From: Thermodesulfobacteriota bacterium
GTDB lineage: Bacteria > Desulfobacterota > BSN033 > UBA1163
Reading direction: 5' to 3'
DNA: 64,000 nucleotides
Assembly: GCA_047519465.1 (NCBI GenBank)
Contig: JAPVTA010000262.1
Span: forward strand, 11,220 to 75,219
Shown here: positions 1 through 42,230 of the stretch, in pieces
Layout of the letters: every line of letters starts with the position of its first letter
Numbering within the stretch: the first letter of the stretch is position 1
The notes under the pieces: model-generated
Database searches by the model: none
The model's input: only the letters and a program-made list of their open reading frames with translations
Told to the model about the DNA's origin: nothing
Program-made: the position numbers and the translations under genes

Positions 1-441
1 GTCCCTGCGGCAACCATTTATCGTGAATTGGTTCCTTTCGGGGCGGCCTATCAAAACATCGTCGGCGATTTAGCCGTTTCACCCGAGGGCGTTTTGGCTC
101 ATCTTTCCGGCGGGAATTACGGAGCCGATGAAAATTTGCTTGGCTCGCCATTTCCCCTGGATGCGGCAATGCACGCCGCTTGTGTATGGGGACAACGTTT
201 CAGCGACATTGTCCCCTTTCCCGTAGGTTTTGAAAAGAGGTTGATTTATCAAAAGACAAAAAAAGGAGGCAGCTATCTTGGTCGGGTGGTGCCGGTGAGT
301 ATCGATTGTGAATCGCTCTTGTTCGATGCCTGGATTTATGATTTAAACGGTGTTATTTATGAAGCGATCAGCGGCATTAACATGCGGGATGTCACTCAAG
401 GCCGCCTGCGTCCGCCGCAATGGATTAAAGCAGAATTTTAA
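1..441 (+). CDS. 3' end of a gene running off the window start; hot-dog fold, PKS-type dehydratase-like C-terminal half (partial)
   Basis: Open frame from nt 1 to stop at 439-441; motifs PFPLDAAMHAA and VPFPVGFEKRL resemble the second hot-dog half of PKS/PUFA-type DH domains; no start in window. Confidence 0.4.
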   Translation, partial: VPAATIYRELVPFGAAYQNIVGDLAVSPEGVLAHLSGGNYGADENLLGSPFPLDAAMHAACVWGQRFSDIVPFPVGFEKRLIYQKTKKGGSYLGRVVPVSIDCESLLFDAWIYDLNGVIYEAISGINMRDVTQGRLRPPQWIKAEF

Positions 442-560: not shown

Positions 561-1769
561 TTGAAGAAAGGACTGGACGACGAGGAACTGATGGTGGATG
601 TTTTTGTAGGAGCCAGTAATGCGATCACATCCCTTGGCTTTTCCACAGCCAGGCATGTCGAGCAAGTAAAGGCCAATCAAATCGGTATCAGCATCTATCC
701 GGGCGGAGATCTCTACCCCACCGCTGTTCCGTTGTCTCTTGTTGATACTGGAGAATTACTTGATCTTTTCCAAAAATATCTTTGCAAGACAAGACCGGAT
801 CTTCAACCGGATTTGTTTACCCGCTCGGAAATGCTTCATATTCTGTCGATTTCAGATGTTTTGAAGAGCTCTGGAGTGGATATCACAGATCCTCGGACTC
901 TTATCATCCTGGCCACCCTTAAGGGCAATATGGACCTCATAGGGGGGAACAACCGCCTTCCGGCAATTGACCCAGACCGAGTTTATTTATGGAAATGGGG
1001 CGAGTTTCTCGGGTCTTTCTTTAATAGTTCGAACAAACCCCTTGTGGTTTCTAATGCCTGCATCTCCGGTGTGCTGGCGGTCCTCATTGGGTCACGGCTG
1101 ATCAAAGCCGGCAGGTATGATCACGTGATTGCGGCGGGAGGCGACATTTTGACGGAATTCGCGGTATCCGGCTTTCAATCGTTTCAGTCCCTCAGCCCCA
1201 AACCCTGTAAACCGTTCGATGCGGCCAGAGACGGACTCTCACTCGGCGAAGGCTGCGGTAGCATCGTGCTCAGTCGTGATCATTCATTGTGTGGTATACC
1301 GGAGAAGATCGTCGTTGCAGGAGGGTCTTGCACAAACGATGCCCATCACATCTCAGGCCCTCTCCGAACGGGCGAAAGCTTTTATGTTGCCATCCGCATA
1401 GCTCTGGGAGAGGCATCCTTAGACCCACTGGACATTGATTACATTTCTGCCCATGGAACGGGCACCGATTACTACGACGAGACGGAAGCGAAGGCCTTGT
1501 CATGGGCAGGCTTAGAAAAGGTTCCTGCTAACAGCTTTAAGGGTTATTTCGGACATACCCTCGGCGCAGCGGGAATCATTGAGTCAGCGCTTGCCATTGC
1601 TACAATGAGGAATAATGAATTATTCCGATCGGCAGGGTTTGAAAATCCCGGGACATCACAATCTATTAATATTTTAACGGATCATACGGTCAAAGAAGTG
1701 AATCATTGTTTGAAAACAGCCTCGGGTTTTGGAGGGTGCAATGCGGCGGTCGTCTATAAGAAAATTTAG
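561..1769 (+). CDS. beta-ketoacyl-ACP synthase (FabF/FabB-like elongating KS)
   Basis: 402 aa; Cys-His-His triad motifs NACISG, SAHGTGT, GHTLGAAG, C-terminal GFGGCNAAVV; TTG start at 561 (alternative ATG at 591). Confidence 0.85.
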   Translation: MKKGLDDEELMVDVFVGASNAITSLGFSTARHVEQVKANQIGISIYPGGDLYPTAVPLSLVDTGELLDLFQKYLCKTRPDLQPDLFTRSEMLHILSISDVLKSSGVDITDPRTLIILATLKGNMDLIGGNNRLPAIDPDRVYLWKWGEFLGSFFNSSNKPLVVSNACISGVLAVLIGSRLIKAGRYDHVIAAGGDILTEFAVSGFQSFQSLSPKPCKPFDAARDGLSLGEGCGSIVLSRDHSLCGIPEKIVVAGGSCTNDAHHISGPLRTGESFYVAIRIALGEASLDPLDIDYISAHGTGTDYYDETEAKALSWAGLEKVPANSFKGYFGHTLGAAGIIESALAIATMRNNELFRSAGFENPGTSQSINILTDHTVKEVNHCLKTASGFGGCNAAVVYKKI

Positions 1770-1877: not shown

Positions 1878-1887
1878 GAAAAGACGC

Positions 1888-2541
1888 ATGGAATTATTGA
1901 TCACAAGATACATGAAGCTTCAAGACCATCGCGTGTCGCTCAACGGAATCGTTGAATATACATCGGAGGCGGAATCCGTGGATGCATTATTCCGTTCGGT
2001 TTACCGTTATTACAATATCGACTACCCGAAATTTTTCAAAATGGACAACCTCTGCAAGCTCGCTTTTCTGAGCGCCGAGATCTCACTCCAGGGTACTGAC
2101 GTTCTTCAGAAATATCCGGGTGAACAAATCGGGATCATTCTGGAAAATGCCAGCTCCTCACTGGAGTACGACCAAAGACACCAGGAATCCGTCCGTGACC
2201 GGAACCGGTACTTCCCGAGCCCATCCGTGTTCGTCTATACCATTCCAAATATCATGGTCGCCGAGATCGCCATACGGCATAAGGTGAAAGGGGAGAATAC
2301 CGTCTTCATCTCTGAGCAATTTGATCCAGAGTTGATTGATCACTATGTCTCTGAATTGTTCCGTAACCAACAGGTCAACTGTTGCCTCTCCGGCTGGATT
2401 GAATGTTATGTCAATCATTATCAGTCTTTTCTTTTCATTATTGAGCAGGAAGATAAGATCAAAAGATTTAAAGGACTTCAGGAATATGTTATTTTAAACA
2501 CCTTGAACATGGAAAAACTGTATAAAGGAAAATTCATATGA
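1888..2541 (+). CDS. small KS-N-terminal-like / chain-length-factor-like protein (inference)
   Basis: 217 aa, tightly linked between KS and ACP; the CLF-like call is contextual inference by analogy with small KS-N-terminal-like proteins of APE-type clusters, I did not identify a specific KS-like motif in it; translational coupling with ACP (stop overlaps ATG at 2538). Confidence 0.4.
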   Translation: MELLITRYMKLQDHRVSLNGIVEYTSEAESVDALFRSVYRYYNIDYPKFFKMDNLCKLAFLSAEISLQGTDVLQKYPGEQIGIILENASSSLEYDQRHQESVRDRNRYFPSPSVFVYTIPNIMVAEIAIRHKVKGENTVFISEQFDPELIDHYVSELFRNQQVNCCLSGWIECYVNHYQSFLFIIEQEDKIKRFKGLQEYVILNTLNMEKLYKGKFI

Positions 2542-2801
2542 TCGAAGATTTGATTCTCAAACTCAAGAAGGAGATTATTGAAGAACTGAATGTGGAAAAC
2601 ATCACACCGGAAGAGGTGGACGCGGACGCCCCTATTTTCGGGGAGGAGGGGTTAGGCCTTGATTCCATCGATGCGCTGGAGCTCGTGGTGTTACTGGATA
2701 AAAATTACGGTATCAAGATCCAGGCTTCCAAAGAAGGGCGTAAGATATTCCGCTCCGTAAAAACCATCGCCGAATATATACTGGAGCATCAAAAGAAATA
2801 A
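2538..2801 (+). CDS. acyl carrier protein
   Basis: 87 aa, phosphopantetheine attachment motif LGLDSIDALELV. Confidence 0.85.
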   Translation: MIEDLILKLKKEIIEELNVENITPEEVDADAPIFGEEGLGLDSIDALELVVLLDKNYGIKIQASKEGRKIFRSVKTIAEYILEHQKK

Positions 2802-2838
2802 AGCCAGTGTAGTGATTCAGACATTACTTTAGAGAGAC

Positions 2839-2950
2839 CGTCATTCCGGACCCGCCTTGCCGACCCGCAGGCGAGGCAGGCTTGATCCGGAATCCAGTCT
2901 TTTCACTTGGATTCCCGCCCCGTACTTGATACGGGGCGGGAATGACAACC
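2839..2950. repeat. REP/MITE-like intergenic hairpin element, copy 2
   Basis: Contains GTCATTCCGG…CCGGAATCCAGTCTTTTCACTTGGATTCCCGCCCCGTACTTGATACGGGGCGGGAATGACAACC; 3' 60 nt are the reverse complement of the 5' part of copy 3. Confidence 0.8.
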
Positions 2951-3000
2951 CTCATTATCATTGCAAAGAAATGTTAGATTCACTACACTAGTCACAGATT

Positions 3001-4263
3001 ATGAAGTTCACGCTCATTTACCCGAAATGGAAGAAACTCAGGGGCCAGACGGAATTCCACCTTCCTCCGCACGGCCCTGTTGTCTTTGCTGCGACACTGC
3101 CCAGAGACGTGGAAATTACTTTCACCGATGAGAACCTGGAGACAATCGATTTCAGCGATCGGGCAGATCTCATCGGGATCTCCATGATGCTGACGAGCCA
3201 ACTGAAACGGGGTTGGGAAATCGCGGAAGAGTACCGCAGGCGGGGCAGGAAGGTCATCTGCGGCGGCATTGCAACGATGCTTCATGCCGAAGAGACGTCC
3301 CTTCATGCCGATGCGGTCTTCCTCGGGGAGGCGGAAGGACGGATGGAGCAGGTCCTGGATGATTTTCGAAATAACCGACTCCGGAAGGTCTACGACTACC
3401 TGACAGACTTCCCACCCATCGCTTCCGTCGGCACGGCCCGGCGGGACATCCTGAAACGGCAGCTTTACTCCTACAAAGGAATCCAGATGGTCGATCTTTT
3501 TCATGCCTCGCGGGGGTGTCGGTTCGACTGCTACCCATGCTGCATGAGCTTCGTTGGAGGAAGGAAGTTCCGTCCCCGTCCTTTCGAGAAGGTGGTGGAG
3601 GAGCTGACGGCCATTGACAACAACCGTCTGTTTATCGTTGACAATTCTCTATCCCAGGATACGGCATGGCAAAAACAACTCTTCCGTGAGATGATTCCTT
3701 TGAAAAAAAAGTGGTGCTGCCACCCCATCGGGGACGACGATGAAGTCCTCAATCTGGCGGCCCAAGCCGGGGCGTGGTTCGTATATCATGCCATCTTCGA
3801 CACCTCGGACTTCATTCGCAACCGGGTCAAGCGCTATCACGACTTCGGGATCGGGGTGGAGGGAACAATCCTCCTGGGCCTCGACCGCCACACGGAGGAT
3901 TCTATCCACCGCCTCATCGATTTTCTCTTAGAGATAGAATTGGATCTGGCTGAGTTCACTGTATTGACCCCCTTTCCCCACACTCGCGCCTTTACGGACC
4001 TGCAGAGTGAGGGACGGATCCTTTCTTACAACTGGAACGACTATACCTGCGACCAGGTGGTGTTCCAGCCAAAAAAGATGAGCCCGGAGCGTCTTCAGCA
4101 GTTATACGATGAGGCATGGAAAATCTTCTATCGGGAGAAATCCCAACCCTACAGGATGTTCGAACTCTTCGAAAGGGTCATCGACAAGGAAATGGCGGAT
4201 GGTAGCTTCCAGCGGCAGCCTCGGACTCGGGGGAGCCGGAAGTTCGGCCGAGGCGAACCATGA
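3001..4263 (+). CDS. cobalamin(B12)-binding radical SAM enzyme
   Basis: 420 aa; N-terminal B12-binding Rossmann-like region; CxxxCxxC radical-SAM motif in SRGCRFDCYPCC. Confidence 0.85.
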   Translation: MKFTLIYPKWKKLRGQTEFHLPPHGPVVFAATLPRDVEITFTDENLETIDFSDRADLIGISMMLTSQLKRGWEIAEEYRRRGRKVICGGIATMLHAEETSLHADAVFLGEAEGRMEQVLDDFRNNRLRKVYDYLTDFPPIASVGTARRDILKRQLYSYKGIQMVDLFHASRGCRFDCYPCCMSFVGGRKFRPRPFEKVVEELTAIDNNRLFIVDNSLSQDTAWQKQLFREMIPLKKKWCCHPIGDDDEVLNLAAQAGAWFVYHAIFDTSDFIRNRVKRYHDFGIGVEGTILLGLDRHTEDSIHRLIDFLLEIELDLAEFTVLTPFPHTRAFTDLQSEGRILSYNWNDYTCDQVVFQPKKMSPERLQQLYDEAWKIFYREKSQPYRMFELFERVIDKEMADGSFQRQPRTRGSRKFGRGEP

Positions 4264-4330
4264 TGTTATGAAGGCTAAACGGAAACAGCAGTGTGGTTAA
4301 TCTAACAGTTTCTCTACAATAATAACGAAG

Positions 4331-4460
4331 GTTGTCATTCCCGCCCCGTATCAAGTACGGGGCGGGAAATCCAGAGTTGAAAGGACTGGATTTCCCCTTG
4401 TCAAGCACCCCGTGTCAAGCACGGGGCAGGCTAAGGCAGGCTTATCAAGTCCGGAAAGAC
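4331..4460. repeat. REP/MITE-like intergenic hairpin element, copy 3 (inverted relative to copy 2)
   Basis: GTTGTCATTCCCGCCCCGTATCAAGTACGGGGCGGGAAATCCAG… and GGCAGGCTTATCAAGTCCGG module. Confidence 0.8.
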
Positions 4461-4572
4461 AGTCTCGGTAAAGTAATTTTTGAATGACATCAGTAGCGAT
4501 TGGGAAAAATTGCTTAAGAGCTGGGGCAAAGATATCTCGCTGACTGTAATCACCTCATGGATGGTGTCATAA

Positions 4573-4815
4573 ATGCAAAAAGAGGAAGCCCTCAAAAAGG
4601 TATCCGAATATTTGGTGACACAATTTGAAATTCCTTCGGAAAAGATAAGTCCTGATGCAAACCTGTTTAAAGATCTCGAGATGGACAGTATTGATGCCTT
4701 AGATTGGTTCGCGGCAATGCAGTCGGAGATCGGTCTTCCTATTATCGAGAAAGAGCTCAAGAGGATAAGAACCGTTCAGGACGTGGTAGACTATGTGGTC
4801 CGGAATTTGAAATAA
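4573..4815 (+). CDS. acyl carrier protein (second copy)
   Basis: 80 aa, LEMDSIDALDW Ser-containing 4'-PP motif. Confidence 0.85.
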   Translation: MQKEEALKKVSEYLVTQFEIPSEKISPDANLFKDLEMDSIDALDWFAAMQSEIGLPIIEKELKRIRTVQDVVDYVVRNLK

Positions 4816-4816
4816 C

Positions 4817-5206
4817 ATGCCGATATCCCCCGAGAGATGGCTGCCTCTGAAGGATCTCCGGATGACCGCCGAAGGCCGTTGGGAATCCATGGTACGATTC
4901 GAACCCTCTTCGGAATGGTTCTCAGGTCACTTTGATGAATGCCCTCTGGTGCCTGGCGTGGCGCTCCTTGCCTTGGCGGCTGAAATGGTCAAAAGACAAG
5001 GTCTTGAGCAGGGACGTCGTATTGAGGTTTCCGGCTTTTCCAGGGTGAGGTTCAAGCAGTTAGTCTTTCCAGATGAGGAACTGCAAATCTCTGTGGCAGC
5101 CATGCCCTTAGGGCCCGAGGCAAAGCTTGATTTTCATATCACTTGCCGCGGAGATACAGTTGCCCAGGGTTTATTGAAAGCCCGTGAAGAAGTTCCCCGC
5201 CGATGA
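4817..5206 (+). CDS. FabA/FabZ-like 3-hydroxyacyl-ACP dehydratase (hot-dog)
   Basis: 129 aa; SGHFDECPLVPGVALLALAAEM matches FabZ/ApeI-type active-site region; start 1 nt after ACP stop. Confidence 0.75.
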   Translation: MPISPERWLPLKDLRMTAEGRWESMVRFEPSSEWFSGHFDECPLVPGVALLALAAEMVKRQGLEQGRRIEVSGFSRVRFKQLVFPDEELQISVAAMPLGPEAKLDFHITCRGDTVAQGLLKAREEVPRR

Positions 5207-5262: not shown

Positions 5263-6156
5263 ATGAAGGCTTTCGTTCACGAGACGCTCATCAGGGTTTC
5301 TCTTCTCCTGGGCTCCTGGCCCATCCGGTTCTTCGCCTGGTGGATCGCCACGGGATACTTCCTCTTTCTTTCTTCGAGGAGAAGATCAAGTATCTGCCTC
5401 TATGAAGTGATCTTTCCCGAAAAATCGCGATGGTATTATCTTTATTGCACCTGGCGCCAGTTTCACTCCTACGCAGCCACTTTTGCGGAGCGGATTGAGT
5501 TCGATAGAAATAAACGGCTAACCACCTCGACCCAGGGAAGGGAAAACCTAGTAGAGGTGGCCAGAAGAGGGAGAGGGGGAGTGATCCTCATGTCCCATCT
5601 GGGCAGTTTCGAGATTGCTGCAGGCGTGTTTCGAGAAGTGGGGCCCAAGCTTCTTTTGATCATGGGTGAAAAGGAAGCAAAACAGGTGGCCCGGGATCAG
5701 CGCGAAGCCATGAAGGCGCGAGGAATCCATATTCAGGTGGCCGCTGCAGGAGAGGAGTTTCCCTTCGCCGGGGTGGAGGCCATTCAGTTCGTGAGAGAAG
5801 GAGGCTTCGTCTCTGTCGCCGGTGACCTCGTTTGGACCGAACAGCGCTCCCGTCTGCCGGTAACTCTCTTCGGGCATGAGGTGGGCCTCTCCGCAGGTCC
5901 TCATCTCCTCGCCCTGGTTTCAAACGCGCCCCTCTTCACGATGTTTGCTTTTCGAGCTGAAAAAGGAAAATACCTGATCACGATGTCTTCTCCGAGGGAG
6001 GTGAAGGCAACATCCCGTTCTGAAAGAAGTGCGGCCCTCCAAGCGAGCGCACAGGCATACGCCAATGCTCTGGAAGAGATGGTGCGCCAGCACCCTTTCC
6101 AGTGGTACATCTTTGAGCCCTTCTTTGGACCCGTAGCGGCTGATACGAGGAAATAA
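5263..6156 (+). CDS. lysophospholipid/lipid A acyltransferase family (LpxL/HtrB-like)
   Basis: 297 aa; membrane N-terminus; C-terminal HPFQWYIFEPFF typical of LpxL-family (ApeD-like) acyltransferases. Confidence 0.7.
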   Translation: MKAFVHETLIRVSLLLGSWPIRFFAWWIATGYFLFLSSRRRSSICLYEVIFPEKSRWYYLYCTWRQFHSYAATFAERIEFDRNKRLTTSTQGRENLVEVARRGRGGVILMSHLGSFEIAAGVFREVGPKLLLIMGEKEAKQVARDQREAMKARGIHIQVAAAGEEFPFAGVEAIQFVREGGFVSVAGDLVWTEQRSRLPVTLFGHEVGLSAGPHLLALVSNAPLFTMFAFRAEKGKYLITMSSPREVKATSRSERSAALQASAQAYANALEEMVRQHPFQWYIFEPFFGPVAADTRK

Positions 6157-6339: not shown

Positions 6340-8511
6340 TTGGAACGTAGGCGGGTCTTTATCACTGGAATGGGAATCATAAGTTCTCTTGGCCAAGGGG
6401 TGGGCCGTCATGTCGATTCTTTGAAAAAGAATTGTTCCGGAATTGAACCGCTTGCACTATTCACCCCGTCGCCGGGCAATCTCCTTCCAGCCGGTGAAAT
6501 TCCCAATTTTAAGCAAACCCTGAACGTTCCTCGGACACACGAACTTGCTTTCCTGGCTGCCCAGGAGGCGCTTTCAACTACTCGGGTCATCCTCGATGCA
6601 ATCATCCTCGGCACGACGACTGGCGGCATGCCGTTTACTGAAGAGCTTTTGAGAAAAAATCAAAAAGATGCGGATCAATACAAATATCATTCAACCTCCT
6701 CAGTGGCTGAATTTCTTGCGGGCGTTCTGCGCTGCAGTGGTCTTGTCCTCACGATCACGACGGCGTGTTCATCGGGCGCGGTTGCGATCAAGCTAGCCTA
6801 TGAGCTGCTCTCCTCTGGCAAAGCGAATCGTGTGCTCGCCGGCGGTGCGGATGCACTCTGCCGGCTCACTTATTATGGATTCAATTCATTGCAGCTCATT
6901 GACCCTTCCGGTGCGCGTCCTCTTGACCTTGACAGAAACGGCATGACGGTGGGCGAAGGTGCTGCGATGCTCCTCTTGGAAGCGGGAGAATCAAGTCCTG
7001 ACAACGCGATTGCAGAGATTTTAGGCGGAGGGCTATCCTGCGACGCGTATCATCCCACAGCACCGCATCCAGAAGGCAAGGGAGCTCTCGCTGCTATGGA
7101 AAAGGCCTTAGAAGCCGCGGGCATTATTCCTGCGGATATCGAATATATCAATCTCCACGGAACCGGAACCAAGGACAATGACCTCGCCGAAGCAAAGGCG
7201 ATTCATTCCGTTTTTGGTGATCATCTTCCTCCCCTGTCATCAGTGAAAGGAGCTACCGGCCACTCCCTGGCAGCTTCAGGCGCGATCGAATCTGTCATCT
7301 GCGCGGCAGCCATTCAGGAAGGACTCATCCCGGCAAATACGGGCTGCGTTAACCCGGACCCGGAATTGAATTTAAAACCGGCTCTCGCTCCCCTTGAGCA
7401 GAAGGTTGCCGTAGCCCTGTCCAACTCCTTCGGGTTTGGTGGCAACAACGCTTGCCTTGTCCTGGCCGATCCTCGGTCCAAGCACGAAAGACAGAAGCGG
7501 GCCGTATCATTTGGATTTGAAGTTTTAGGGTGCGCTTGCGTCACCGGAGCAGGCAACCTGGAGCAGACATTGAAGAATTTAGATGAAGGAAAAACCTGCA
7601 GCGGAACTCTGCCTCTTGCTGATCTATCAAAGAAGCTCCCAGTCCGTGAGGTCCGTCGACTCAAGCGGTTACCAAGGCTTGCGCTTGCCCTGGCCACGGA
7701 AGCGTCTGAAAGCTCACGGCCATCTCAAACACCATCATCTATCTTCTTCGGCACATCATGGGGTCCGCTATCCGAGACATATCACTTTCTCACGAAGCTC
7801 TATGAATCAAATGAGCAGTTTGCGAGCCCCACCGAATTTGTCGGCTCAGTGCACAATGCTCCCGCAGGCCAGGTGGCGATGATGCTAAACGCAACCGGTC
7901 CCAACATCACCACCACCGGCGGCGATTACTCCTTTGAACAGGCGTTATTTGCCGCGTCCCTGGCTGTGTGCGCCAGCGATCACAGCGTGCTGGTCATGGG
8001 AGCTGACGAACACCACGAGATTTTGTCTCCACTGTTTGACAAATCGGTTTGGATCGGCTCGAATCCGTCCGACGGCGGCGGGGCGCTCATGATACGCAAA
8101 ACAGAAAAGGTATCCGGATTACGGATCGCGGTTATTTTTTTTGAAAATACCAGCAACAATCCGTCTATCGTTCAATCGCTCCTTCACCACCTTGGAGAAT
8201 CGGATGAGATCCGATCGAAATACGGTGCCGTTTTTGTCGGAATTCCTGCGGGAGAGCGAGCGAACTGTGAAAAGCAGGTCCGTGAAATTATTTCAGGCGC
8301 AGATTTCAACGGCCCGGTCGTTGATTTCCGTAAATTCACCGGTGAATTCGGGTCGGCCACTGCTGCGGCAGCGGCCCTTGCGGTAAGATTCGTACAGAAC
8401 GGGATAATCCCTGGCTATCTTTCAGGCGGCGCGGAAAGCCGCCTCAACGGAAGGGGAATACTCCTCCTGGGTCTGGGAAGGTTCCTCACCGCCGTCGAAG
8501 TGTTACCGTAA
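6340..8511 (+). CDS. fused ketosynthase - KS-like (CLF-type, Cys-less) two-domain protein
   Basis: 723 aa; N-domain has TACSSG / HGTGT / GHSLAASG; C-domain is KS-like (HNAPAGQVAMMLNATGPN) but active-site Cys replaced (TTTGGDYS); TTG start with AAGGAG RBS 8 nt upstream. Confidence 0.75.
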   Translation: MERRRVFITGMGIISSLGQGVGRHVDSLKKNCSGIEPLALFTPSPGNLLPAGEIPNFKQTLNVPRTHELAFLAAQEALSTTRVILDAIILGTTTGGMPFTEELLRKNQKDADQYKYHSTSSVAEFLAGVLRCSGLVLTITTACSSGAVAIKLAYELLSSGKANRVLAGGADALCRLTYYGFNSLQLIDPSGARPLDLDRNGMTVGEGAAMLLLEAGESSPDNAIAEILGGGLSCDAYHPTAPHPEGKGALAAMEKALEAAGIIPADIEYINLHGTGTKDNDLAEAKAIHSVFGDHLPPLSSVKGATGHSLAASGAIESVICAAAIQEGLIPANTGCVNPDPELNLKPALAPLEQKVAVALSNSFGFGGNNACLVLADPRSKHERQKRAVSFGFEVLGCACVTGAGNLEQTLKNLDEGKTCSGTLPLADLSKKLPVREVRRLKRLPRLALALATEASESSRPSQTPSSIFFGTSWGPLSETYHFLTKLYESNEQFASPTEFVGSVHNAPAGQVAMMLNATGPNITTTGGDYSFEQALFAASLAVCASDHSVLVMGADEHHEILSPLFDKSVWIGSNPSDGGGALMIRKTEKVSGLRIAVIFFENTSNNPSIVQSLLHHLGESDEIRSKYGAVFVGIPAGERANCEKQVREIISGADFNGPVVDFRKFTGEFGSATAAAAALAVRFVQNGIIPGYLSGGAESRLNGRGILLLGLGRFLTAVEVLP

Positions 8512-8663: not shown

Positions 8664-10403
8664 ATGTACGATAATCTGACGAAGGGCCTGGCCGCAGGCT
8701 ATGAAAGGATTGTGGCGTGGGCCGATATCCTTGACCGGATCAATGTCTATCCTGTACCCGACGGTGACACCGGCCGCAATCTTGTCATTACCCTGGGCGC
8801 CTGCAGGAATATCAACGAAAATCCCGATTCACTGAGCCGAGAGATCCTGCTTTCGGCCAGGGGTAATTCCGGAAACATTGCTGCCGGTTTTTTTGCAGGG
8901 TTCCTCACCTGCAAGGACTTGTCGTCTCTTCCCCTATCCGCCGAGGCCGGCCGTAATCTCGCGTACCGAGCTGTTCCCAACCCTCAACAAGGAACCATGA
9001 TCTCTCTGTTTGATACCCTGGTCGCATCTCTGAAGAAGACCCCTCCCGAAGAGACAGGGATATGGGTGGAATCAATAATCCATGACATGGAAGAGACGGT
9101 TAGGAATACCAGAGAACAATTGCTCGAACTCAGGGAGGCTGGGGTGGTTGATGCAGGAGCCCTCGGCATGCTCGTCTTCTTCGATCCTCTGTTGAATACT
9201 CTGGCTGGCCGCACGGTCAGGCCCTCTCTCTTCACGGATGATCTGAAGGATTCCTTCAACATCTCCGGAACGTGGCAGGACCGAAAATACCATGGCTACT
9301 GCCTTGACGTGTTGCTCAAGATCGAGCACGAAGAGCAGGAAGTTGTGAAGCATATCATGGATGTGGGAGAATCGTTGGTCGCCATGCCCCATGGCGAGTG
9401 CCTCAAAGTACACCTCCATGCCACGGACAGAGAGAGGGCAAGACAAGACCTCACCGCCGTCGGAGCCATCCTGAGCTGGGCCGAAGATGACCTTGCTCAG
9501 CAGACCTTCCGGTTCGGCGAAGCGAGAAAAAATCAGGCCATCCATATCATGACGGATGCGGCTGGCTCCATCACAAGGGATCTGGCTCAGAGCCTTGGAA
9601 TTACTCTCCTCAACAGTTATATCGCCATCGGGAATCGTTTTCTCCCTGAGACCTACGTAGATCCTTCCCAGCTCTTTGCCGCCATGAAGGCTGGAGCCAA
9701 AGTCTCTACGGGCCAAGCCTCAACCGTGGAGCGACAAGAGTGCTATAACAACGTCATGAAAATCCATGACCGCGTCCTCTATCTCTGTGTGGGCTCTTTC
9801 TACACCGGCAATTATGATGTGGCTATCAAATGGAAGGCTGAGAATGATCCCGATGACAGGATGACCATCATTGATACAGGGATCGCCTCGGGCAAGCTCG
9901 GTCTCGTAGCCAGGGCTGCTGCAGAACTCTCCCTCACTGTCAGCGACCCTTTAAAGGTCATCGCCTTCGCCAGGGGTGCGATTCAGAATGTACAGGAATA
10001 TATCTTCCTGGACACGCTGCAATTCTTAGCTGCCGGCGGTAGAATCTCAAAGACCAGTGCCTTTTTTGGCGATGTCCTTCGTATAAAACCGATCGTCAGT
10101 CCCTATCCTGACGGGGCTCGGAAGATCGGGGTAGTTAGAAACCTCAGAGATCAGGTAAAATTCGCCTTCCGTCGTCTTGAACAGGACATTTTAAAAGATC
10201 AAAGGGCGGCTCTGCTTCTCGAGTACTCAGACAACAAGGAGTGGCTTGAGGGGGAAATCAAACCGGAGATAGAGCGCAGGTTTCCTTTGATGCAAATCAT
10301 CGTACAACCTCTCTCCCTTACCACTGCTGCCCATGTGGGCCCGGGCTCCTGGGGCATGGCCTTTCTCAAAGAAGACTCCCAAAAAGGCGACCCATATGTA
10401 TGA
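8664..10403 (+). CDS. FakA-like fatty-acid kinase (DAK2 domain + DegV-like C-terminal domain)
   Basis: 579 aa; N-terminal INVYPVPDGDTGRNL matches DAK2 domain of FakA/YloV; C-terminal half DegV-like. Confidence 0.7.
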   Translation: MYDNLTKGLAAGYERIVAWADILDRINVYPVPDGDTGRNLVITLGACRNINENPDSLSREILLSARGNSGNIAAGFFAGFLTCKDLSSLPLSAEAGRNLAYRAVPNPQQGTMISLFDTLVASLKKTPPEETGIWVESIIHDMEETVRNTREQLLELREAGVVDAGALGMLVFFDPLLNTLAGRTVRPSLFTDDLKDSFNISGTWQDRKYHGYCLDVLLKIEHEEQEVVKHIMDVGESLVAMPHGECLKVHLHATDRERARQDLTAVGAILSWAEDDLAQQTFRFGEARKNQAIHIMTDAAGSITRDLAQSLGITLLNSYIAIGNRFLPETYVDPSQLFAAMKAGAKVSTGQASTVERQECYNNVMKIHDRVLYLCVGSFYTGNYDVAIKWKAENDPDDRMTIIDTGIASGKLGLVARAAAELSLTVSDPLKVIAFARGAIQNVQEYIFLDTLQFLAAGGRISKTSAFFGDVLRIKPIVSPYPDGARKIGVVRNLRDQVKFAFRRLEQDILKDQRAALLLEYSDNKEWLEGEIKPEIERRFPLMQIIVQPLSLTTAAHVGPGSWGMAFLKEDSQKGDPYV

Positions 10404-11604
10404 AAAAATCTTACGCGGCATGAAAGGTCTTCTGATGCTTGGACTTTTCGGCCTGTTTCTCCTCGGCATCTTCCTTGAATTACTGATCATTCTTCCGGTC
10501 CTCTGGGTCCTCAACAGAATCCTTGGGCCTAAGCATTACCGGATGCAGTGGACGATCCGTATCCTCGTCGGCCTGTGGCTCTTCTTCCTGAGAGCGTGCG
10601 GGCTACTCAAGGCGAGGGAGTTGAAAGGGAAGCCTTTCGATGGACCGTGTGTGATTGTTTCGAACCACCCCGGCCTCTTCGACGTGCTCTTCCTGATTCG
10701 GGATATCCCACGCATGTCTGTCATGGTCAAGCAATCCCTGGCAAGGAAGCTTCCCCTCGGCCCTGTCTTTCGCTCTGCAGGGTATGTCCTCTCCCCTGAC
10801 TTCGAGCAGAGGGGACCGTTCCAGTCCCTGGATGAGGCTATCGAGAAGATCGACATGGGGTACAAGTTCATGATCTTTCCTGAGGCCACTCGATCCCCTA
10901 AAGGAGACCTGGGCAGGTTCAGCGCCGGCCCCTTCATGCTTGCAAGGCTATCGAATGTCCCATTGCAGCCGGTGTTTGTCAGAAACGATCCACCTTTTCT
11001 CCCGAAGGAAGACAAATGGTACTTTCCTCCCTCCCGGGTCTCGACCCTTGAGATCGAATTCTGGGAGCCGACGGCCCCTCCGCAAGCAGGACAGGAGCGG
11101 CAGTTTGCCAGGGATCTCGAGGCTCGGTACAGGGAGGCGTTGGGCTTAACCTCTAACCAACTCTTTCCAGCTGAACCTTTGATCCCGCATCGTCTTGGCA
11201 TGAGGCTCATAGACCGGGTGAAGAGACCGACCTGGAACGCTTTGCAGGCTGAGACGATTGTTACTGAGGAATGGCCCTTGTACAACAACGGAGAGGTAAG
11301 TTCCATCCTATGTATTGAACTGGCCGCCCAAGCCATCTCTGCCCTGAGCACATGGCGTCGAGGTAAAGGGGCTGGACCGCGGGTCGGATTGCTCGTTGGC
11401 ATCAAAGAAGCGGAATTCTCAAGGTCGAGCGTTCCTGTAGGGACCAGACTCCACATCGAGATTGAGGAGCTTTCGCACGTTGGGGACTATGCCGTGTTTG
11501 AAGGCAAAGTAAGATCAGATTCGGACTCCTTGTGTAAAATCATTATCCAGGTGATGGAACCTGAAGAGACCCTATCGAACCTAAAGACCAGACAGAGAAT
11601 CTAA
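10396..11604 (+). CDS. PlsC-family acyltransferase fused to C-terminal hot-dog domain
   Basis: N-terminal TM helices; NHxxxxD motif (VSNHPGLFD), FPEATRS motif; C-terminal ~130 aa hot-dog-like; ATG overlaps FakA-like stop (ATGTATGA). Confidence 0.75.
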   Translation: MYEKILRGMKGLLMLGLFGLFLLGIFLELLIILPVLWVLNRILGPKHYRMQWTIRILVGLWLFFLRACGLLKARELKGKPFDGPCVIVSNHPGLFDVLFLIRDIPRMSVMVKQSLARKLPLGPVFRSAGYVLSPDFEQRGPFQSLDEAIEKIDMGYKFMIFPEATRSPKGDLGRFSAGPFMLARLSNVPLQPVFVRNDPPFLPKEDKWYFPPSRVSTLEIEFWEPTAPPQAGQERQFARDLEARYREALGLTSNQLFPAEPLIPHRLGMRLIDRVKRPTWNALQAETIVTEEWPLYNNGEVSSILCIELAAQAISALSTWRRGKGAGPRVGLLVGIKEAEFSRSSVPVGTRLHIEIEELSHVGDYAVFEGKVRSDSDSLCKIIIQVMEPEETLSNLKTRQRI

Positions 11605-11630: not shown

Positions 11631-12365
11631 ATGCCTACGCTGTCTAAACAGATTGCCCTCGTGACGGGCGGGGGCCGGGGAATTGGACGCGCGATCTGCC
11701 TGGAGCTGGCAAAGAACGGCTGTTACGTGATTATCAATTTCCGCTCCAACACAAAGGCCGCTGAAGAGACCCTGGGGTTGATCCATCAAGTTGGAGGAAA
11801 GGGTGAGATCGTCCGTTTCGACGTCGCCAATCAGGAAGAAACTGAGCGAAACATCGAAACCCTCCTGACACGCCATGATGCGATCGATATTCTGGTAAAC
11901 AATGCAGGAGAAACTGCGGACGGTCTTTTTGTCTTGATGCCTCCCGACGAATGGGTGAAAGTGCTCAACACCTCCTTGCAAGGATTCTACAATGTGACGA
12001 AACCCGTTCTGATGAAGATGGTCAACAGAAAGCATGGTTTTATTGTTGCCATCTCTTCTGTGTCTGCAAGGCTCGGCCACCGTGGTCAGACAAATTACTC
12101 GGCAGCCAAGGCAGGTCTTGAAGGAGCCTGTCGATCCCTTGCCTCGGAGGTTGCTCGTCTTGGTATTCGGGTCAATGTCGTGGCGCCGGGCTTGATTGAA
12201 ACGGAGATGCTTCAGGCTGTTCCCAGGGATATGATAAAACAGATCATACCGATGGGCCGAGTAGGCCTGCCTGAAGAGGTAGCCAAGGTGGTTCGTTTCT
12301 TGTGCTCTGAGGATGCCTCTTACATTACCGGCCAGGTCATATCCGTCAATGGGGGAATGATCTAA
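11631..12365 (+). CDS. 3-oxoacyl-ACP reductase (FabG-like SDR)
   Basis: 244 aa; TGGGRGIGRAI NAD(P)-binding motif, Y-x3-K catalytic pair (NYSAAKAG). Confidence 0.9.
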   Translation: MPTLSKQIALVTGGGRGIGRAICLELAKNGCYVIINFRSNTKAAEETLGLIHQVGGKGEIVRFDVANQEETERNIETLLTRHDAIDILVNNAGETADGLFVLMPPDEWVKVLNTSLQGFYNVTKPVLMKMVNRKHGFIVAISSVSARLGHRGQTNYSAAKAGLEGACRSLASEVARLGIRVNVVAPGLIETEMLQAVPRDMIKQIIPMGRVGLPEEVAKVVRFLCSEDASYITGQVISVNGGMI

Positions 12366-12369
12366 AAAA

Positions 12370-12397
12370 GTAGGGAACGCATATATGCGTTCCCTAC
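12370..12397. promoter_or_regulatory. perfect 28-bp palindrome GTAGGGAACGCATAT/ATGCGTTCCCTAC at FabG-like stop / LolA-like start
   Basis: Exact inverted repeat with no spacer; right arm contains the LolA-like ATG (12385). Confidence 0.6.
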
Positions 12398-13023
12398 TGA
12401 AGGGATTGGCATTGAAAGGATTCCTTTCCATCACACTAGTAATAATAGCGGGAGTTTTCTTCGTCGAAACAGCATCGGCCCAGGATTGGACCTCTCTGAA
12501 AGAAACTTTCAGAAACATTCGATCCGTGAAGGCGGATTTCCTCCAGAAGAGATACCTCAAAATCCTAATAAGACCTCTCCTGTCTGAGGGAAAGCTCTTT
12601 TTTTATATCCCTGATTCTCTGAGATGGGAGTACCTCAACCCGCTGCGAAGCGTGATGCTGGAAAAGGGGAGTACCGTCCAGGTTTACAACTTCTCTGAGG
12701 GTACGTGGAAGCCAGAGATGACGCAGGCTGTTGAGGCAAGGCGGATGGTACTTGCGGAAGTCAGTCATTGGTTTCAGGGCCGTTTCGATGAAAGCACCGC
12801 ATTCAAGCACCTTTATTCTCCCGGACCTCCTGCGCGAGTCACGATGGTTCCTGGGGAAGGGATCAACAGGTTTATCCAGCGGATTGAGATCGTTCTGTCT
12901 GTGAGGCCAGGGGTCATTGATCGGGTGGAGATAGAGGAACCCGGAGGCTCCCGGACCACAATTGAATTCAGGAACGTGGAGATCAATTCCAGCTTCCCTT
13001 CAGAGGTCTTCGAGAAACCATGA
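12385..13023 (+). CDS. LolA-like outer-membrane lipoprotein carrier family protein
   Basis: 212 aa with signal peptide (…FFVETASA/QD); LolA-like size and context (APE-type clusters carry LolA-like genes). Confidence 0.55.
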   Translation: MRSLLKGLALKGFLSITLVIIAGVFFVETASAQDWTSLKETFRNIRSVKADFLQKRYLKILIRPLLSEGKLFFYIPDSLRWEYLNPLRSVMLEKGSTVQVYNFSEGTWKPEMTQAVEARRMVLAEVSHWFQGRFDESTAFKHLYSPGPPARVTMVPGEGINRFIQRIEIVLSVRPGVIDRVEIEEPGGSRTTIEFRNVEINSSFPSEVFEKP

Positions 13024-13676
13024 TTCGCGCCAAGGCCCTTGATGTCTGTCTTCTGGGATTTCTTGTCCTCTGCGTCGGGTGTGCCTCTCCATCCAAGAAA
13101 ACCCTGGGCCCGGGCTCACCGGATGACGTGCCAGGCTGTTATGCCGTTTTTCCGGGAGAGCCCTGGGAGTCGGTGCATCGGATTGAGGCCACCGTCAGAG
13201 GAGAAGGTTCTTCCTCGCTGCTTGGAGTCACCAAAGGCGAACCATCGGAGCGAAGGCTTCAGAGCCTTTTGCTCACCCCCGAAGGGTTCATCCTGTTCGA
13301 TGCGGAACTCTCGGGGGATGGAATCGCTGTCCGAAAGGCAATGGCTCCCTTCGATTCACCGGCTTTTGCCAGAGGGCTGATGGAGGATGTGTCTCTCCTC
13401 TTTCTCCCTCCGCAGGGCAAGCCCGCCGCATGGGCGAAGGAAACGGATGGAACGATGATTTGCAACTGGGAAAACCATGACGATTCCCATACCGAGATTT
13501 CGGGATCGATGGAGAGCGGCTGGCGAATCCTCCGCCAGAACAAAAATGGGAAGGTCATAAAGGAAATCGTCTTGAACGGACCTTTTGTCAACGGTCTTGC
13601 GTCGCGCATCGAGCTCCGCACATTCAGACCGGCGCCGTACAGGCTCAGGATGACTTTGGTCCAACCGTCTCCTTAA
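13020..13676 (+). CDS. lipoprotein of unknown function (LolB/DUF3261-like position)
   Basis: 218 aa; lipobox LVLCVGCAS; overlaps LolA-like stop (ATGA). Confidence 0.45.
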   Translation: MIRAKALDVCLLGFLVLCVGCASPSKKTLGPGSPDDVPGCYAVFPGEPWESVHRIEATVRGEGSSSLLGVTKGEPSERRLQSLLLTPEGFILFDAELSGDGIAVRKAMAPFDSPAFARGLMEDVSLLFLPPQGKPAAWAKETDGTMICNWENHDDSHTEISGSMESGWRILRQNKNGKVIKEIVLNGPFVNGLASRIELRTFRPAPYRLRMTLVQPSP

Positions 13677-39109: not shown

Positions 39110-39700
39110 TCAAGGGTCGTCGCAGGTGATCAGAGTGATCACATGTCCATTCCCTTCGGCGTGTCTGACAGGGTAAGTCTTTTCTTGATACTTCATCATC
39201 CCATCTTCCTCTCCCACGCTAACTACCTCTACTTCCCGGATAGCTTGAAATAGATCAAGACCCAATGCCTTGGCTGCTGCCTCCTTGGTGGTCCAGGCGC
39301 GAGTGCCGGCCCTCTGAGGGCCCAAACCGGATAGTAAGATAAGGTCTCTTTCCCTAGGTGACATAAAGAGATGCTTCGTCCTTATTACTTTCTCTGAAAC
39401 CATCTCAAGGTCAACGCCAATCCGATGCCTGTACGCAACTGCTGCTATTAGCTGTCCACAATGGGAGACCGAGCAATAGATTCCGCTCTCGTTGAGGCAA
39501 GGCTTTACGTCATCAGGGCTAAGGGTTTCAATCGTCCGGTCAGGCCTGTCCTTTTCTACAAGGTTAAGTTGGCGGGCCAGTCTCTTCAGAGCGACTCTCG
39601 CCGCGGCAAATCCTTTCCGCCTTCGTGGACCCATTCTCATCGCCCTTGCGGCTTCGCGCGGCGTAAAGAGATTCTCCTCGATAAGGGAGATGGTTTCCAT
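39110..39700 (-). CDS. 4'-phosphopantetheinyl transferase (Sfp/EntD-type)
   Basis: Motifs SVSHCG…GVDLE and WTTKEAAAKALG; start assigned to internal Met (METISL) because the ORF N-terminal extension runs through a GC hairpin. Confidence 0.7.
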   Translation of the reverse strand: METISLIEENLFTPREAARAMRMGPRRRKGFAAARVALKRLARQLNLVEKDRPDRTIETLSPDDVKPCLNESGIYCSVSHCGQLIAAVAYRHRIGVDLEMVSEKVIRTKHLFMSPRERDLILLSGLGPQRAGTRAWTTKEAAAKALGLDLFQAIREVEVVSVGEEDGMMKYQEKTYPVRHAEGNGHVITLITCDDP

Positions 39701-39835
39701 ATCGAGGAGGACCATCCCAAGACAGGCCGCCCGCAGCCGCTCGATCCCAGGCCATATGGGGGAATCGTTCGTAAGAGAAGAAGCAGAAATAAAGTCTGGA
39801 CTTATTTCGTTCAAGGCCGAACTCAGCCTCCAGCA

Positions 39836-39882
39836 CCCCTCACCCTCCCCTCTCCCCACTGGGGAGAGGGGAGGGTGAGGGG
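39836..39882. other. perfect 22-bp-stem GC-rich hairpin (CCCCTCACCCTCCCCTCTCCCC-ACT-GGGGAGAGGGGAGGGTGAGGGG)
   Basis: Exact reverse-complement arms with 3-nt loop, in divergent intergenic region between PPTase (-) and thioesterase (+). Confidence 0.8.
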
Positions 39883-40312
39883 GAGCCGAGCCAAATGTCA
39901 AAATTGTTTCTGTGTTTCATCAGTAATGATAGCGATCGAGAGAGGGCCGTGTCAAGATCAGTCAAAGAGAACAGATCAGCGGAGGTAAATCCCGATTTAG
40001 AAAAGAAAGCCCTTTCATCAACGCGTCATTGCGAACACCTGAAAGGGGTGTGGCAGTCTTCGGGAAAAAGCGAGACTGCTTCGTTTCATTCGCAGAGACC
40101 GTTCCCTAAGTCGGGATGAGGGGGCTGCTGTCGCAATTGAAAAAGTATTTATGTTATGATATTTTTAGTTGCCGTTTTGGATGCGTACGTTTTAATACAG
40201 TGGCATTAAATAGAGGTCATTGTGAAGAGTTAAGTGAAGACAGTGGGATCGCTTACAATGATGATGTGAGGGGAATTAATGCGTTCGTTTTAGTTCCCAT
40301 TGAAAATTACTT

Positions 40313-40750
40313 GTGAGAAGAATGCCTCAATCTGTTTCGGCCAGTATCACGATGAAGGTGCCTTATCACGACGTGGACCTGATGCGGGTCGTCTGGCATG
40401 GGAACTACTTAAAATACTTCGAGGTGGCCCGGCAGGCACTTTTTAGAGAATACGGAGTGGACTTACAGCGCTACATGGAGGAGAAAAGGTACGTATTTCC
40501 GATAGTCCGCTCCACGATCAAGCATATCTGGCCTTTGAGATTCGATGAAGAGTTCACGTGCACGGCAATGCTCAAGGAAGCTCGCGTTAGGATCGTCTTA
40601 AATTTCGACATAAAGTTAACCTCTAACGGAAGACTCTGCGCCAAAGGCTGGACCGAGCAGGCAGCGGTTCTATTACCGGAGATGGAAATAGTCTTTCAGA
40701 TCCCCGAGGAAATCCAGAAGGCTTTCTACGAGGATGAACAACTGAAATGA
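40313..40750 (+). CDS. acyl-CoA/acyl-ACP thioesterase (4HBT/YbgC-like hot-dog)
   Basis: 145 aa; YHDVDLMRVVWHGNYLKYFE matches 4HBT active-site region. Confidence 0.75.
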   Translation: MRRMPQSVSASITMKVPYHDVDLMRVVWHGNYLKYFEVARQALFREYGVDLQRYMEEKRYVFPIVRSTIKHIWPLRFDEEFTCTAMLKEARVRIVLNFDIKLTSNGRLCAKGWTEQAAVLLPEMEIVFQIPEEIQKAFYEDEQLK

Positions 40751-40781
40751 GAACAGAGCGCACGCGGGAAATTTCATAAAA

Positions 40782-42017
40782 ATGGGAAATAAGAGAAGAG
40801 TTGTCGTTGTCGGCATGGGGATACGGTCTCCGATCGGCAATACTCCAAACGAATTAGTAAAATCGCTCAAGGAACGCCGAAGTGGCATCTCCATCATGTC
40901 CGAGTGGGAAGGCGTAAAGAATCTACGCACCCGTGTGGCCGGGTTGTGTGATATTGAAGGCGAGGAAGAATCAATCCAGCGGCAGTACCGGCGCAGCATG
41001 GGCAGGGTGGCCATGCTGGCAGCCCTCTCTGCCATCGACGCAGTGAAGGCATCCGGCCTGAGCGAAGAGGAGGTCGCTTCACCGGCCTGCGGCGTCTCTT
41101 ACGGATCGACCGAAGGGAGCGTCAGAAGTCAGATGGAATATATCGGTAACATGATTCAGAACCGCTCCCTCGAAGGCATACCTCCATCTTGGTACTTGAA
41201 ATGCATGAGTCACACGTGTGCAGGCAATCTTTCCATTCTATTCCATACGAGAGGGCCTTTCATAGCATCCTGCCCGGCCTGTGTTTCGGGTTCCCAGGGG
41301 ATCGGCTTCGGTTATGAGGCGATCAAGGCCGGAAAGGCGGACATCATGATCACAGGTGGGGCAGACGAGGTCGACATTCTCTCTGCCGCCGTGTTCGACC
41401 TGATGCTGGCCACATCATCCAATTACAATGACCGGCCGTCAGAAACTCCTCGGCCTTTTGATGAAAAGAGGGATGGCCTAGTCGTAGCCGAAGGGGGAGC
41501 AACGTTGATCCTTGAGGAGTACGAGCGGGCGAAGAAACGAGGGGCCCCCATTCTTGGTGAGATTGAAGGCTTCTGGACAAATGGAAGCGGCGTACACCTT
41601 ACAAACTCGGATGCCCGGTCTATGGAAGAGTGCTTGCTCGCTGCGTTAAAAGACGCCGGGCGCAGCCCGGATGAAATCCAGTATGTGAACGCGCATGCAA
41701 CCGGTACAATCCACGGAGACGAAGTCGAGGCAACGGTGATCAATAAGATCTACGGGCCGGGTGTCCCGACCGCCTCCCTCAAAGGCTACATGGGCCACAC
41801 CATGGGAGCCTGTGGAGCGATTGAAGCCATTGCCACTCTTCTCATGATGCGGGAAGGCTTCATCTCTTCTACCTTAAATCTTGAGAACCCAGACCCAGCC
41901 CTGCCGCCGTTAAACCATGTGATTGGCGAATCGCGCGACCAACGGTCTCGTCTTGCCGCCAGCAACAATTTCGCCTTTGGCGGAGTCAATACTTCCTTAG
42001 TTTTGAGATTGATCTAA
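40782..42017 (+). CDS. beta-ketoacyl-ACP synthase I/II (FabF/FabB-like)
   Basis: 411 aa; PACVSG, NAHATGT, GHTMGACG catalytic motifs. Confidence 0.9.
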   Translation: MGNKRRVVVVGMGIRSPIGNTPNELVKSLKERRSGISIMSEWEGVKNLRTRVAGLCDIEGEEESIQRQYRRSMGRVAMLAALSAIDAVKASGLSEEEVASPACGVSYGSTEGSVRSQMEYIGNMIQNRSLEGIPPSWYLKCMSHTCAGNLSILFHTRGPFIASCPACVSGSQGIGFGYEAIKAGKADIMITGGADEVDILSAAVFDLMLATSSNYNDRPSETPRPFDEKRDGLVVAEGGATLILEEYERAKKRGAPILGEIEGFWTNGSGVHLTNSDARSMEECLLAALKDAGRSPDEIQYVNAHATGTIHGDEVEATVINKIYGPGVPTASLKGYMGHTMGACGAIEAIATLLMMREGFISSTLNLENPDPALPPLNHVIGESRDQRSRLAASNNFAFGGVNTSLVLRLI

Positions 42018-42091
42018 GAGTAGGCTTTCTCCGTCATTCTTTGAACGAAGGCGTCTCTTCCTAACCCGGCATAGCCAGAACCAAACACGGG

Positions 42092-42230
42092 TTGAAATCC
42101 CAATTTCCAAATCCCAAATTCCAAATAATTTCCAATCACCAAATGACCAAATTCCGATTCAAATCCGTTTGGGTCATTCGAAATTTGAATTTGGATATTG
42201 CTTGGGATTTGGTGCTTCGACTGAAGTCTT
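42092..42230. repeat. low-complexity CCAAAT/ATTTGG-rich palindromic region between convergent genes (probable bidirectional terminator region)
   Basis: Multiple TCCCAAATTCCAAAT repeats mirrored by ATTTGAATTTGGAT…TTGGGATTTGG; internal hairpin TGACCAAA…TTTGGGTCA. Confidence 0.5.

Follow-up and report, generated by a model that had tools for sequence, protein, structure and literature searches.

The locus and its radical SAM gene

A 64,000-nucleotide stretch of a Thermodesulfobacteriota genome (GenBank assembly GCA_047519465.1, contig JAPVTA010000262.1, positions 11,220 to 75,219 of the forward strand; hereafter the window) carries a gene for a radical S-adenosylmethionine (SAM) protein, rSAM, inside a cluster of genes that resemble those of fatty acid synthesis. 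The gene had been placed by an initial annotation between two acyl carrier protein (ACP) genes, and this is borne out: the open reading frame (ORF) is exact, its CxxxCxxC motif is invariant among relatives and both ACPs score above NCBIfam cut-offs (Table 1). In this work, we show that the family of this enzyme is genomically tied to genes for ACPs, ketosynthase/chain-length factor (KS/CLF) pairs, dehydratases, acyltransferases and export. A tailoring role on the lipid produced is our tentative interpretation.

The protein has more than 6000 homologues (best E 7e-274). In an alignment of 67 family sequences the sole invariant cysteines are C173, C177 and C180 (CxxxCxxC; here CRFDCYPC), which points to one [4Fe-4S] site without an auxiliary cluster. 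The same alignment, which spans both clades of the family described below, was used to build an AlphaFold2 (AF2) model with a pLDDT of 92.7; an earlier model from 33 close orthologues was dropped, as its pLDDT was 64 and its C-terminal half unreliable. The model consists of a Rossmann fold (residues 1-133) followed by a radical SAM barrel. Membership of the radical SAM superfamily is evident from the invariant motif, the barrel core and matches to radical SAM structures, and the N-terminal domain is of the B12 type, with its Rossmann fold and a score above the cut-off of the Pfam B12-binding model (PF02310). This domain is precomputed in nearly all of the family members listed, and a G88 G89 pair and L64 are invariant within it. 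Together these results show that the radical SAM enzyme combines a B12-type Rossmann domain with one [4Fe-4S]/SAM site. The label 'cobalamin-dependent' is an annotation-level reading of the domain match; cobalamin use is plausible.

Every gene in positions 1-13676 lies on the + strand. The predicted parts list is that of an aryl-polyene (APE)-type cluster, with type II KS/CLF pairs, two ACPs, ApeI- and ApeP-type dehydratases and a ketoreductase (KR). The ApeI-like and ApeP-like matches are weak in the window, and matches with E<=1e-5 are on record for the orthologues. The 217-amino-acid KS-like protein is probably the chain-length-factor partner of KS1, and its gene overlaps the start of ACP1 by 4 nt. 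No enoyl reductase was found among the ORFs of the window cluster. Likewise, no aryl starter genes (an ammonia-lyase or hydroxybenzoate route together with an AMP-ligase) lie in or beside it, which leaves an aryl head group unproven in the window genome; such genes do occur in the orthologous clusters of Syntrophales and Desulfocapsaceae.

A set of genes for export and anchoring is also present. LolA, a lipoprotein and a lysophospholipid acyltransferase (LPLAT) are in the main cluster, and a family 2 glycosyltransferase (GT2) is in a satellite group about 25 kb away (39110..42956) that probably serves the same pathway. The satellite genes are 45-54% identical to Syntrophales cluster genes (tblastn). 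Their homologues sit inside the cluster in two orthologous loci, L087 and L093, and the pathway therefore seems to be split in the window genome. A weak outer membrane protein beta-barrel-like ORF on the - strand was also seen in the satellite region (39110-43586).

Close relatives carry a further gene, an MMPL-methyltransferase fusion that is divergent and located just upstream of the position matching the window edge. For example, a large fusion of an MMPL/RND-type exporter and a class I methyltransferase is encoded in L083 (2846-5938), and in L094 (16607-17263) a large exporter-methyltransferase fusion of this type also includes a GT2; these genes are divergent from or opposite to the cluster, and both are outside the window. 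The deacetylase-like gene that is cut by the window edge has full 409-amino-acid orthologues in L083 and L085, and these carry Polysacc_deac_1. No family match was found for the 218-amino-acid lipoprotein. As listed, the ORF at 10333-11604 begins within the last 71 nt of the Dak2-DegV gene, and its real start may be further downstream.

The Dak2-DegV protein resembles FakA and FakB joined in one chain, and a PlsY gene is next to or near the rSAM gene in several loci (e.g. L008 9042-9638 and L089 6861-7481). PlsY is an acyl-phosphate-dependent glycerol-3-phosphate acyltransferase. Together, Dak2-DegV and PlsY suggest an acyl-phosphate route into glycerolipid.

Table 1. Features of the cluster, its satellite group and the intergenic repeats (window coordinates; aa, amino acids; SDR, short-chain dehydrogenase/reductase; PPTase, phosphopantetheinyl transferase)
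Feature	Position	Strand	Remarks
Deacetylase-like gene, 3' part	1..441	+	cut by window edge; polysaccharide-deacetylase-like with PS-DH-like tail; ORF 28-441 matches PS-DH
KS1	561..1769	+	ketoacyl-synt N and C domains; Cys/His/His active site present; best NCBIfam match PRK09185, under cut-off
Short KS-like protein	1888..2541	+	217 aa; weak fabF match; conserved beside KS1 in L083/L085
ACP1	2538..2801	+	PP-binding; DSI serine motif; NF006617 78 bits (cut-off 70)
Left repeat copy	2802..3000		about 200 nt; inverted relative to right copy
rSAM	3001..4263	+	420 aa; B12-domain-type radical SAM protein; clade A of unnamed family
Right repeat copy	4264..4500		reverse complement of left copy
ACP2	4573..4815	+	PP-binding; DSI serine motif; NF003757 80 bits (cut-off 65)
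Hot-dog dehydratase, FabA/ApeI type	4817..5206	+	FabA 25 bits; weak ApeI-like match; orthologues with PF22818
LPLAT (lipid A-type) acyltransferase	5263..6156	+	Lip_A_acyltrans
KS + CLF-like fusion	6340..8511	+	723 aa; ketoacyl-synt, Ketoacyl-synt_2; directly after the rSAM-ACP pair in the sister clade
Dak2-DegV fusion	8664..10403	+	arranged like fatty acid kinase FakA/FakB pair; near rSAM in 32/46 loci
PlsC-type acyltransferase + ApeP-like dehydratase	10333..11604	+	one 423-aa ORF; two overlapping genes in L083-L085
Ketoreductase (SDR)	11631..12365	+	
LolA-like carrier	12385..13023	+	best NCBIfam match LolA2_flexi, under cut-off
Predicted lipoprotein	13020..13676	+	218 aa; signal peptide, lipobox-like Cys
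Satellite: Sfp-type PPTase	39110-39901	-	
Satellite: 4HBT thioesterase	40313-40750	+	
Satellite: KS	40782-42017	+	
Satellite: GT2	42231-42956	-	

The protein family and its genomic linkage

The rSAM protein belongs to a tight clade. A search of representatives clustered at 50% identity returned one sequence at 68% and one at 52% identity, with the remainder at 39% or less. In clade A, which holds the window protein, sequences from Syntrophales, Desulfobacterales, Desulfocapsaceae and some metagenome-assembled genomes of Spirochaetota remain at least 68% identical. Its sister, clade B, shares about 50% identity with the window protein and is found mainly in Desulfobacterota, with one Elusimicrobia member. 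A metagenome scan with a clade B protein gave one partial locus only.

No NCBIfam cut-off is reached by the window protein, by clade B or by the nearest outgroups. Several named families were considered and rejected on their scores: TIGR04072 (rSAM_ladder_B12; 43.7 bits, cut-off 360), the AprD4 family NF033070 (36.2 bits over a C-terminal stretch only, cut-off 500), BchE (37.9 bits, equivalog cut-off 481) and HpnJ (51.1 bits, equivalog cut-off 578). HpnR, PhpK-type, QCMT, TsrM-type, TIGR04013 and other NCBIfam families scored far under their cut-offs, and no curated methylase family of NCBIfam was matched. A positive control, the protein at 3535-4881 of the Desulforhopalus locus L086, reached 386 bits on the TIGR04072 model and is 22% identical to the window protein. 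Given these scores and this low identity to a bona fide TIGR04072 member, the window protein is, by sequence, a member of a separate, unnamed two-clade family.

For the analysis of genomic linkage we counted 46 distinct orthologue loci with at least 5 kb of flank on both sides. At least two gene types of aryl-polyene or ladderane-like lipid clusters are within reach of the rSAM gene in 43 of them, and these loci come from several orders and phyla. The nearest outgroup (39% identity) is not in a lipid cluster. A lipid role had been suggested at the outset, on the understanding that it would become unlikely if the protein fell in a clade of characterised non-lipid radical SAM enzymes and its linkage was sporadic; we looked for both and found neither, as the scores above and the 43 linked loci illustrate, and a lipid or polyketide role is supported.

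The usual gene order in clade A is ApeP-type dehydratase, KR, LolA, lipoprotein and rSAM, then ammonia-lyase, AMP-ligase or 4HBT, and then Dak2-DegV and GT2. The lipoprotein orthologue is the commonest upstream neighbour (35 of 77 loci), while an aromatic ammonia-lyase (TAL) is immediately 3' of the rSAM gene in 31 of 73 loci, with an AMP-ligase or 4HBT gene there in 8 more. Clade B loci repeatedly have the rSAM gene directly ahead of ACP and KS/CLF fusion genes, namely as rSAM-ACP-ACP-KS/CLF-PDH-TAL in L087 (PDH, phytoene-desaturase-like oxidase), ACP-dehydratase-rSAM-ACP-KS/CLF with PlsY and a deacetylase in L089, rSAM-ACP-KS/CLF-PDH with a 3-nt gap before the ACP gene in L090, and rSAM-ACP-KS/CLF-deacetylase with a 20-nt overlap between the first two genes in L094. 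Coupling to ACP is thus seen on both sides of the deepest split in the family, which is independent support for the ACP link. The clade B gene orders support the idea that rSAM is a cluster-dedicated enzyme that probably works with ACP. That its substrate is tethered to ACP, as the initial annotation proposed, is plausible and finds partial backing in clade B, but not in the slot between ACP1 and ACP2 on which the proposal was based: we considered a family-wide conservation of the ACP-rSAM-ACP order and rejected it, as this order is confined to the window, L001, L002 and L083-L085.

Related clusters can host up to three further radical SAM families, a TIGR04072 member (L086 3535-4881), a B12 rSAM of about 490 amino acids that is BchE/HpnJ-like, and a small non-B12 rSAM pair. 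Sites of further rSAM genes include L081 17478-18941, L008 7557-9041, L087 6728-8938 and L002 at about 1750-2840. None of these further families was found within the window.

The cluster can be compared with several known types. APE/flexirubin clusters of Proteobacteria and Bacteroidota share with it two ACPs, KS/CLF pairs, ApeI- and ApeP-type dehydratases, KR, LPLAT, a LolA-like protein, MMPL export and a lipoprotein and, in the relatives of the window, an aromatic ammonia-lyase and ligase. To our knowledge, and in line with literature searches, characterised APE clusters are without a radical SAM gene, a Dak2-DegV fusion or PlsY. TIGR04072, the 'lipid biosynthesis B12-binding/radical SAM protein' of ladderane-type clusters (the family of Kuste2803), has a neighbourhood like that of our family, with ACP, KS/CLF, a phytoene-desaturase-like oxidase and a hot-dog dehydratase. 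It, too, is uncharacterised. It is nonetheless a different family, and the two are side by side in L086, where PDH, the TIGR04072 gene, KS/CLF and ACP are back to back with ApeP-KR-LolA-lipoprotein-rSAM-AMP ligase-Dak2/DegV-GT2-LPLAT.

Our literature searches found no paper that characterises an rSAM of an APE-type cluster or one in Desulfobacterota. The view that no such step has been characterised for an APE-type cluster holds to this extent, but the combination of genes is not new: FAS (fatty acid synthase)-like clusters with rSAM genes were reported in 2009 from the deltaproteobacterium Desulfotalea psychrophila and from Kuenenia stuttgartiensis (Rattray et al., PMC2649909). Those clusters share with L086 the SAM radical enzymes, a 'phenylacetyl-CoA ligase', a glycosyltransferase, a phytoene-dehydrogenase-like gene and atypical KS paralogues. 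The window cluster is a variant of this extended FAS type, but without the PDH and TIGR04072 genes; the rSAMs named in that paper are DP1853/DP1855 and Kuste3342/3343. Genome-mining software flags clusters of this kind as 'ladderane' in Desulfobacterota, with no known product (PMC9902471). None of the rSAMs of such clusters, those of anammox bacteria included, has been characterised so far (PMC13459092 section 5; PMC10139942; bioRxiv 10.64898/2026.05.19.726425).

Candidate reactions and competing readings

We favour a reading in which rSAM is a pathway-dedicated tailoring enzyme of a type II FAS- or polyketide synthase-like lipid cluster that resembles aryl-polyene and ladderane-like clusters, with cobalamin-mediated C-methylation as its chemistry; we give this a probability of roughly 0.4. 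The chain under attack would be built by the KS/CLF pair and carried by a neighbouring ACP. A 5'-deoxyadenosyl radical generated by rSAM would abstract hydrogen from an unactivated carbon of that chain and methylation via cobalamin, favoured but unproven, would then yield a branched chain. The modified chain could be handed on to glycerolipid or LPLAT acyltransferases and exported via LolA and MMPL proteins.

This preference draws on the fold and B12-type domain, the cluster linkage and the ACP coupling described above, and on the precedents for such enzymes. The B12-domain rSAMs characterised so far are mostly methylases (PMC12931638). The class B methylases QCMT/MgmA, TsrM, CysS and TokK are like rSAM in their domain order, CxxxCxxC motif and Pfam B12-binding match, at TM-scores of 0.54-0.64 and identities of 14-17%. 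CysS has been crystallised with a pantetheinylated substrate, so pantetheine-linked substrates are possible for such enzymes. A profile of our family matches, with its N-terminal residues 55-205, the cobalamin domain of QCMT/MgmA, a true B12 enzyme (E 3e-5). As the class I methyltransferase of the relatives is fused to the MMPL exporter, a radical methylase would serve unactivated positions and would not be a duplication. We also considered whether rSAM simply substitutes for the ApeB-type methyltransferase and rejected this, since the relatives carry the MMPL-methyltransferase fusion as well.

A number of observations weigh against C-methylation, or against a dedicated role in the cluster. 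The PF02310 match is a marginal pass (33.2 bits, cut-off 32.1) and the Pfam Radical_SAM model gives 24.6 bits, under its cut-off of 29.5. In a Foldseek search of the PDB the clear top match is AprD4 (6FD2; TM-score 0.78/0.72, E 5e-21), followed by QCMT/MgmA, TsrM, MiaB, CysS, OxsB and TokK at TM-scores of 0.54-0.67, and the cobalamin enzymes reach at most 0.65. The family profile also finds AprD4 as its best match among PDB sequences, over the core and C-terminal domain (E 2.5e-13), and AprD4 is a radical SAM diol dehydratase that has a Rossmann-like domain but binds no cobalamin (PMC12931638, PMC5461906). The rSAM gene of most clade A genomes is not beside an ACP gene, and comes after the export genes and before the aromatic ammonia-lyase. 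Some loci have an atypical context, such as L070 with only DakDegV, 4HBT and GT2 nearby, L069 with only distant LPLAT, PlsY and MMPL genes, L003 with Mfd and PmbA-type neighbours and no cluster genes within 10 kb, and the clade B locus L092 with no lipid-cluster genes within 8 kb. Finally, no product is known for any cluster of this kind.

The best of the alternatives is an AprD4-like, cobalamin-independent enzyme, in which the B12-like domain is structural and hydrogen is abstracted next to a hydroxyl group, with elimination of water or a related redox-neutral rearrangement. It would act on a hydroxylated intermediate, either a hydroxyacyl chain or the head group of the lipid (sugar or glycerol). 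AprD4, the 1,2-diol dehydratase of apramycin biosynthesis, is the closest solved relative in both sequence and fold, and it has the same three-part architecture of N-terminal Rossmann-like domain, radical SAM barrel and C-terminal domain in about 420-450 amino acids. With ArsL, it illustrates that a B12-type domain may occur without cobalamin (PMC12931638). Furthermore, GT2, the polysaccharide-deacetylase-like protein and the SDR reductase recur in the clusters, which mirrors the pairing of AprD4 with its reductase AprD3 (PMC5461906). However, rSAM and AprD4 share only about 20% identity, the match to NF033070 reaches a small fraction of the cut-off, AprD4 acts on an aminoglycoside in a wholly different genomic context, and the tightest recurrent neighbours of rSAM are ACP and KS/CLF genes, not sugar genes. 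The N-terminal domain is also a poor match to that of AprD4 (2.2 bits) and a better one to a true cobalamin domain. The predicted enzyme may thus combine a core that resembles a cobalamin-free protein with an N-terminal domain that looks more like a genuine B12 domain, and we regard the AprD4-like chemistry as unlikely.

The next possibility, which we consider improbable, is that rSAM depends on cobalamin without methylating, and that it makes or rearranges C-C bonds in an ACP-bound unsaturated chain, by cyclisation, ring formation or coupling. OxsB and GrsA/B show that non-methylating B12 rSAMs exist (PMC12931638, PMC13459092), and the B12 rSAM of the anammox ladderane cluster has been proposed to act in a parallel way. 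In L090 and L087 the module rSAM-ACP-KS/CLF-amine oxidase (phytoene-desaturase-like) corresponds to the parts of anammox 'Cluster I', i.e. ACP, FabZ, a KS/CLF pair, PDH and a B12 rSAM (PMC10139942; bioRxiv 10.64898/2026.05.19.726425), and in L090 another ACP and a hot-dog dehydratase are also nearby. That said, the window protein is far from TIGR04072 in score and identity, the coexistence of both families in L086 indicates that they are not interchangeable, and no cyclised lipid is known from the hosts; the polyunsaturated hydrocarbons obtained from Desulfotalea psychrophila are acyclic (PMC2649909).

Could rSAM act on an aromatic starter instead, e.g. by ring C-methylation of a tyrosine- or coumarate-derived head group before it is loaded? 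The frequent ammonia-lyase, AMP-ligase or 4HBT gene immediately downstream would fit, but the window lineage and L089, L090 and L094 keep rSAM with no ammonia-lyase or aryl-acid ligase nearby, phenol ortho positions need no radical methylation and a class I methyltransferase is already present; we hold this to be quite improbable. That rSAM is a housekeeping enzyme, next to the cluster by chance or operon shuffling, is very improbable: its position inside the clusters is variable and L003 and L092 are without cluster genes, but linkage holds in 43 of 46 loci over several orders and phyla, the gene overlaps or nearly abuts that of ACP in L094 and L090, and the nearest outgroup has no lipid-cluster context.

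A bolder version of the lipid-tailoring role is that the family catalyses an undescribed radical transformation on a KS/CLF-made, ACP-bound chain, be it desaturation, ring closure or the addition of a methyl branch to an unactivated carbon, and so gives rise to an unrecognised class of (outer-)membrane lipid that is widespread in anaerobic Desulfobacterota. We consider this doubtful. If true, the compact rSAM-ACP-KS/CLF operons of non-anammox hosts, together with other family members in cultured strains, could provide a tractable model for the rSAMs of ladderane-type FAS clusters.

The reaction of this family is of interest in any case. Clusters with FAS-like and radical SAM genes are common in anaerobes and are flagged as 'aryl polyene' or 'ladderane', while their products and the functions of their rSAMs are undefined; the anammox ladderane cluster, a problem of long standing, is one of them. 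The present family has no curated name and is very conserved, with identities of at least 68% between orders in clade A and about 50% between clades. It recurs in minimal operons of three or four genes with ACP and KS/CLF, and cultured strains with members include Desulfosarcina widdelii PP31 and Desulforhopalus sp. 52FAK. If its reaction were defined, a widespread step of lipid tailoring could be named, and it would also be seen if a B12-type domain whose closest solved relative is the cobalamin-free AprD4 truly uses cobalamin.

Intergenic repeats and downstream genes

Translational proximity between rSAM and the two ACPs, which the initial annotation had assumed, was not found. The gaps are 199 nt (ACP1-rSAM) and 309 nt (rSAM-ACP2), and both are occupied by copies of an inverted repeat. 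The copies share a 60-nt core that is 92% complementary and a 103-nt block that is 88% identical, and a third, partial copy is located at 1770-1887. A GC-rich hairpin of 11 bp, CCCGCCCCGTA...TACGGGGCGGG, is present in each copy. The repeat could be a REP (repetitive extragenic palindromic)- or MITE (miniature inverted-repeat transposable element)-like element, and the inverted orientation might allow inversion of the rSAM gene. The repeat is missing from L002 and L083-L085, and in close relatives without it the gaps are 17 and 102 nt. The idea that the flanking repeats brought the rSAM gene into its slot is unsupported, as these repeat-free relatives have the same gene order.

Downstream of the cluster (16910-24885) are genes for an HTH-cupin regulator, an acetyl-CoA-synthetase-like AMP-binding enzyme, an isochorismatase-family protein, split PPDK (pyruvate phosphate dikinase)-like proteins and an aldehyde dehydrogenase. 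Around 16-20 kb the GC content drops to about 0.42.

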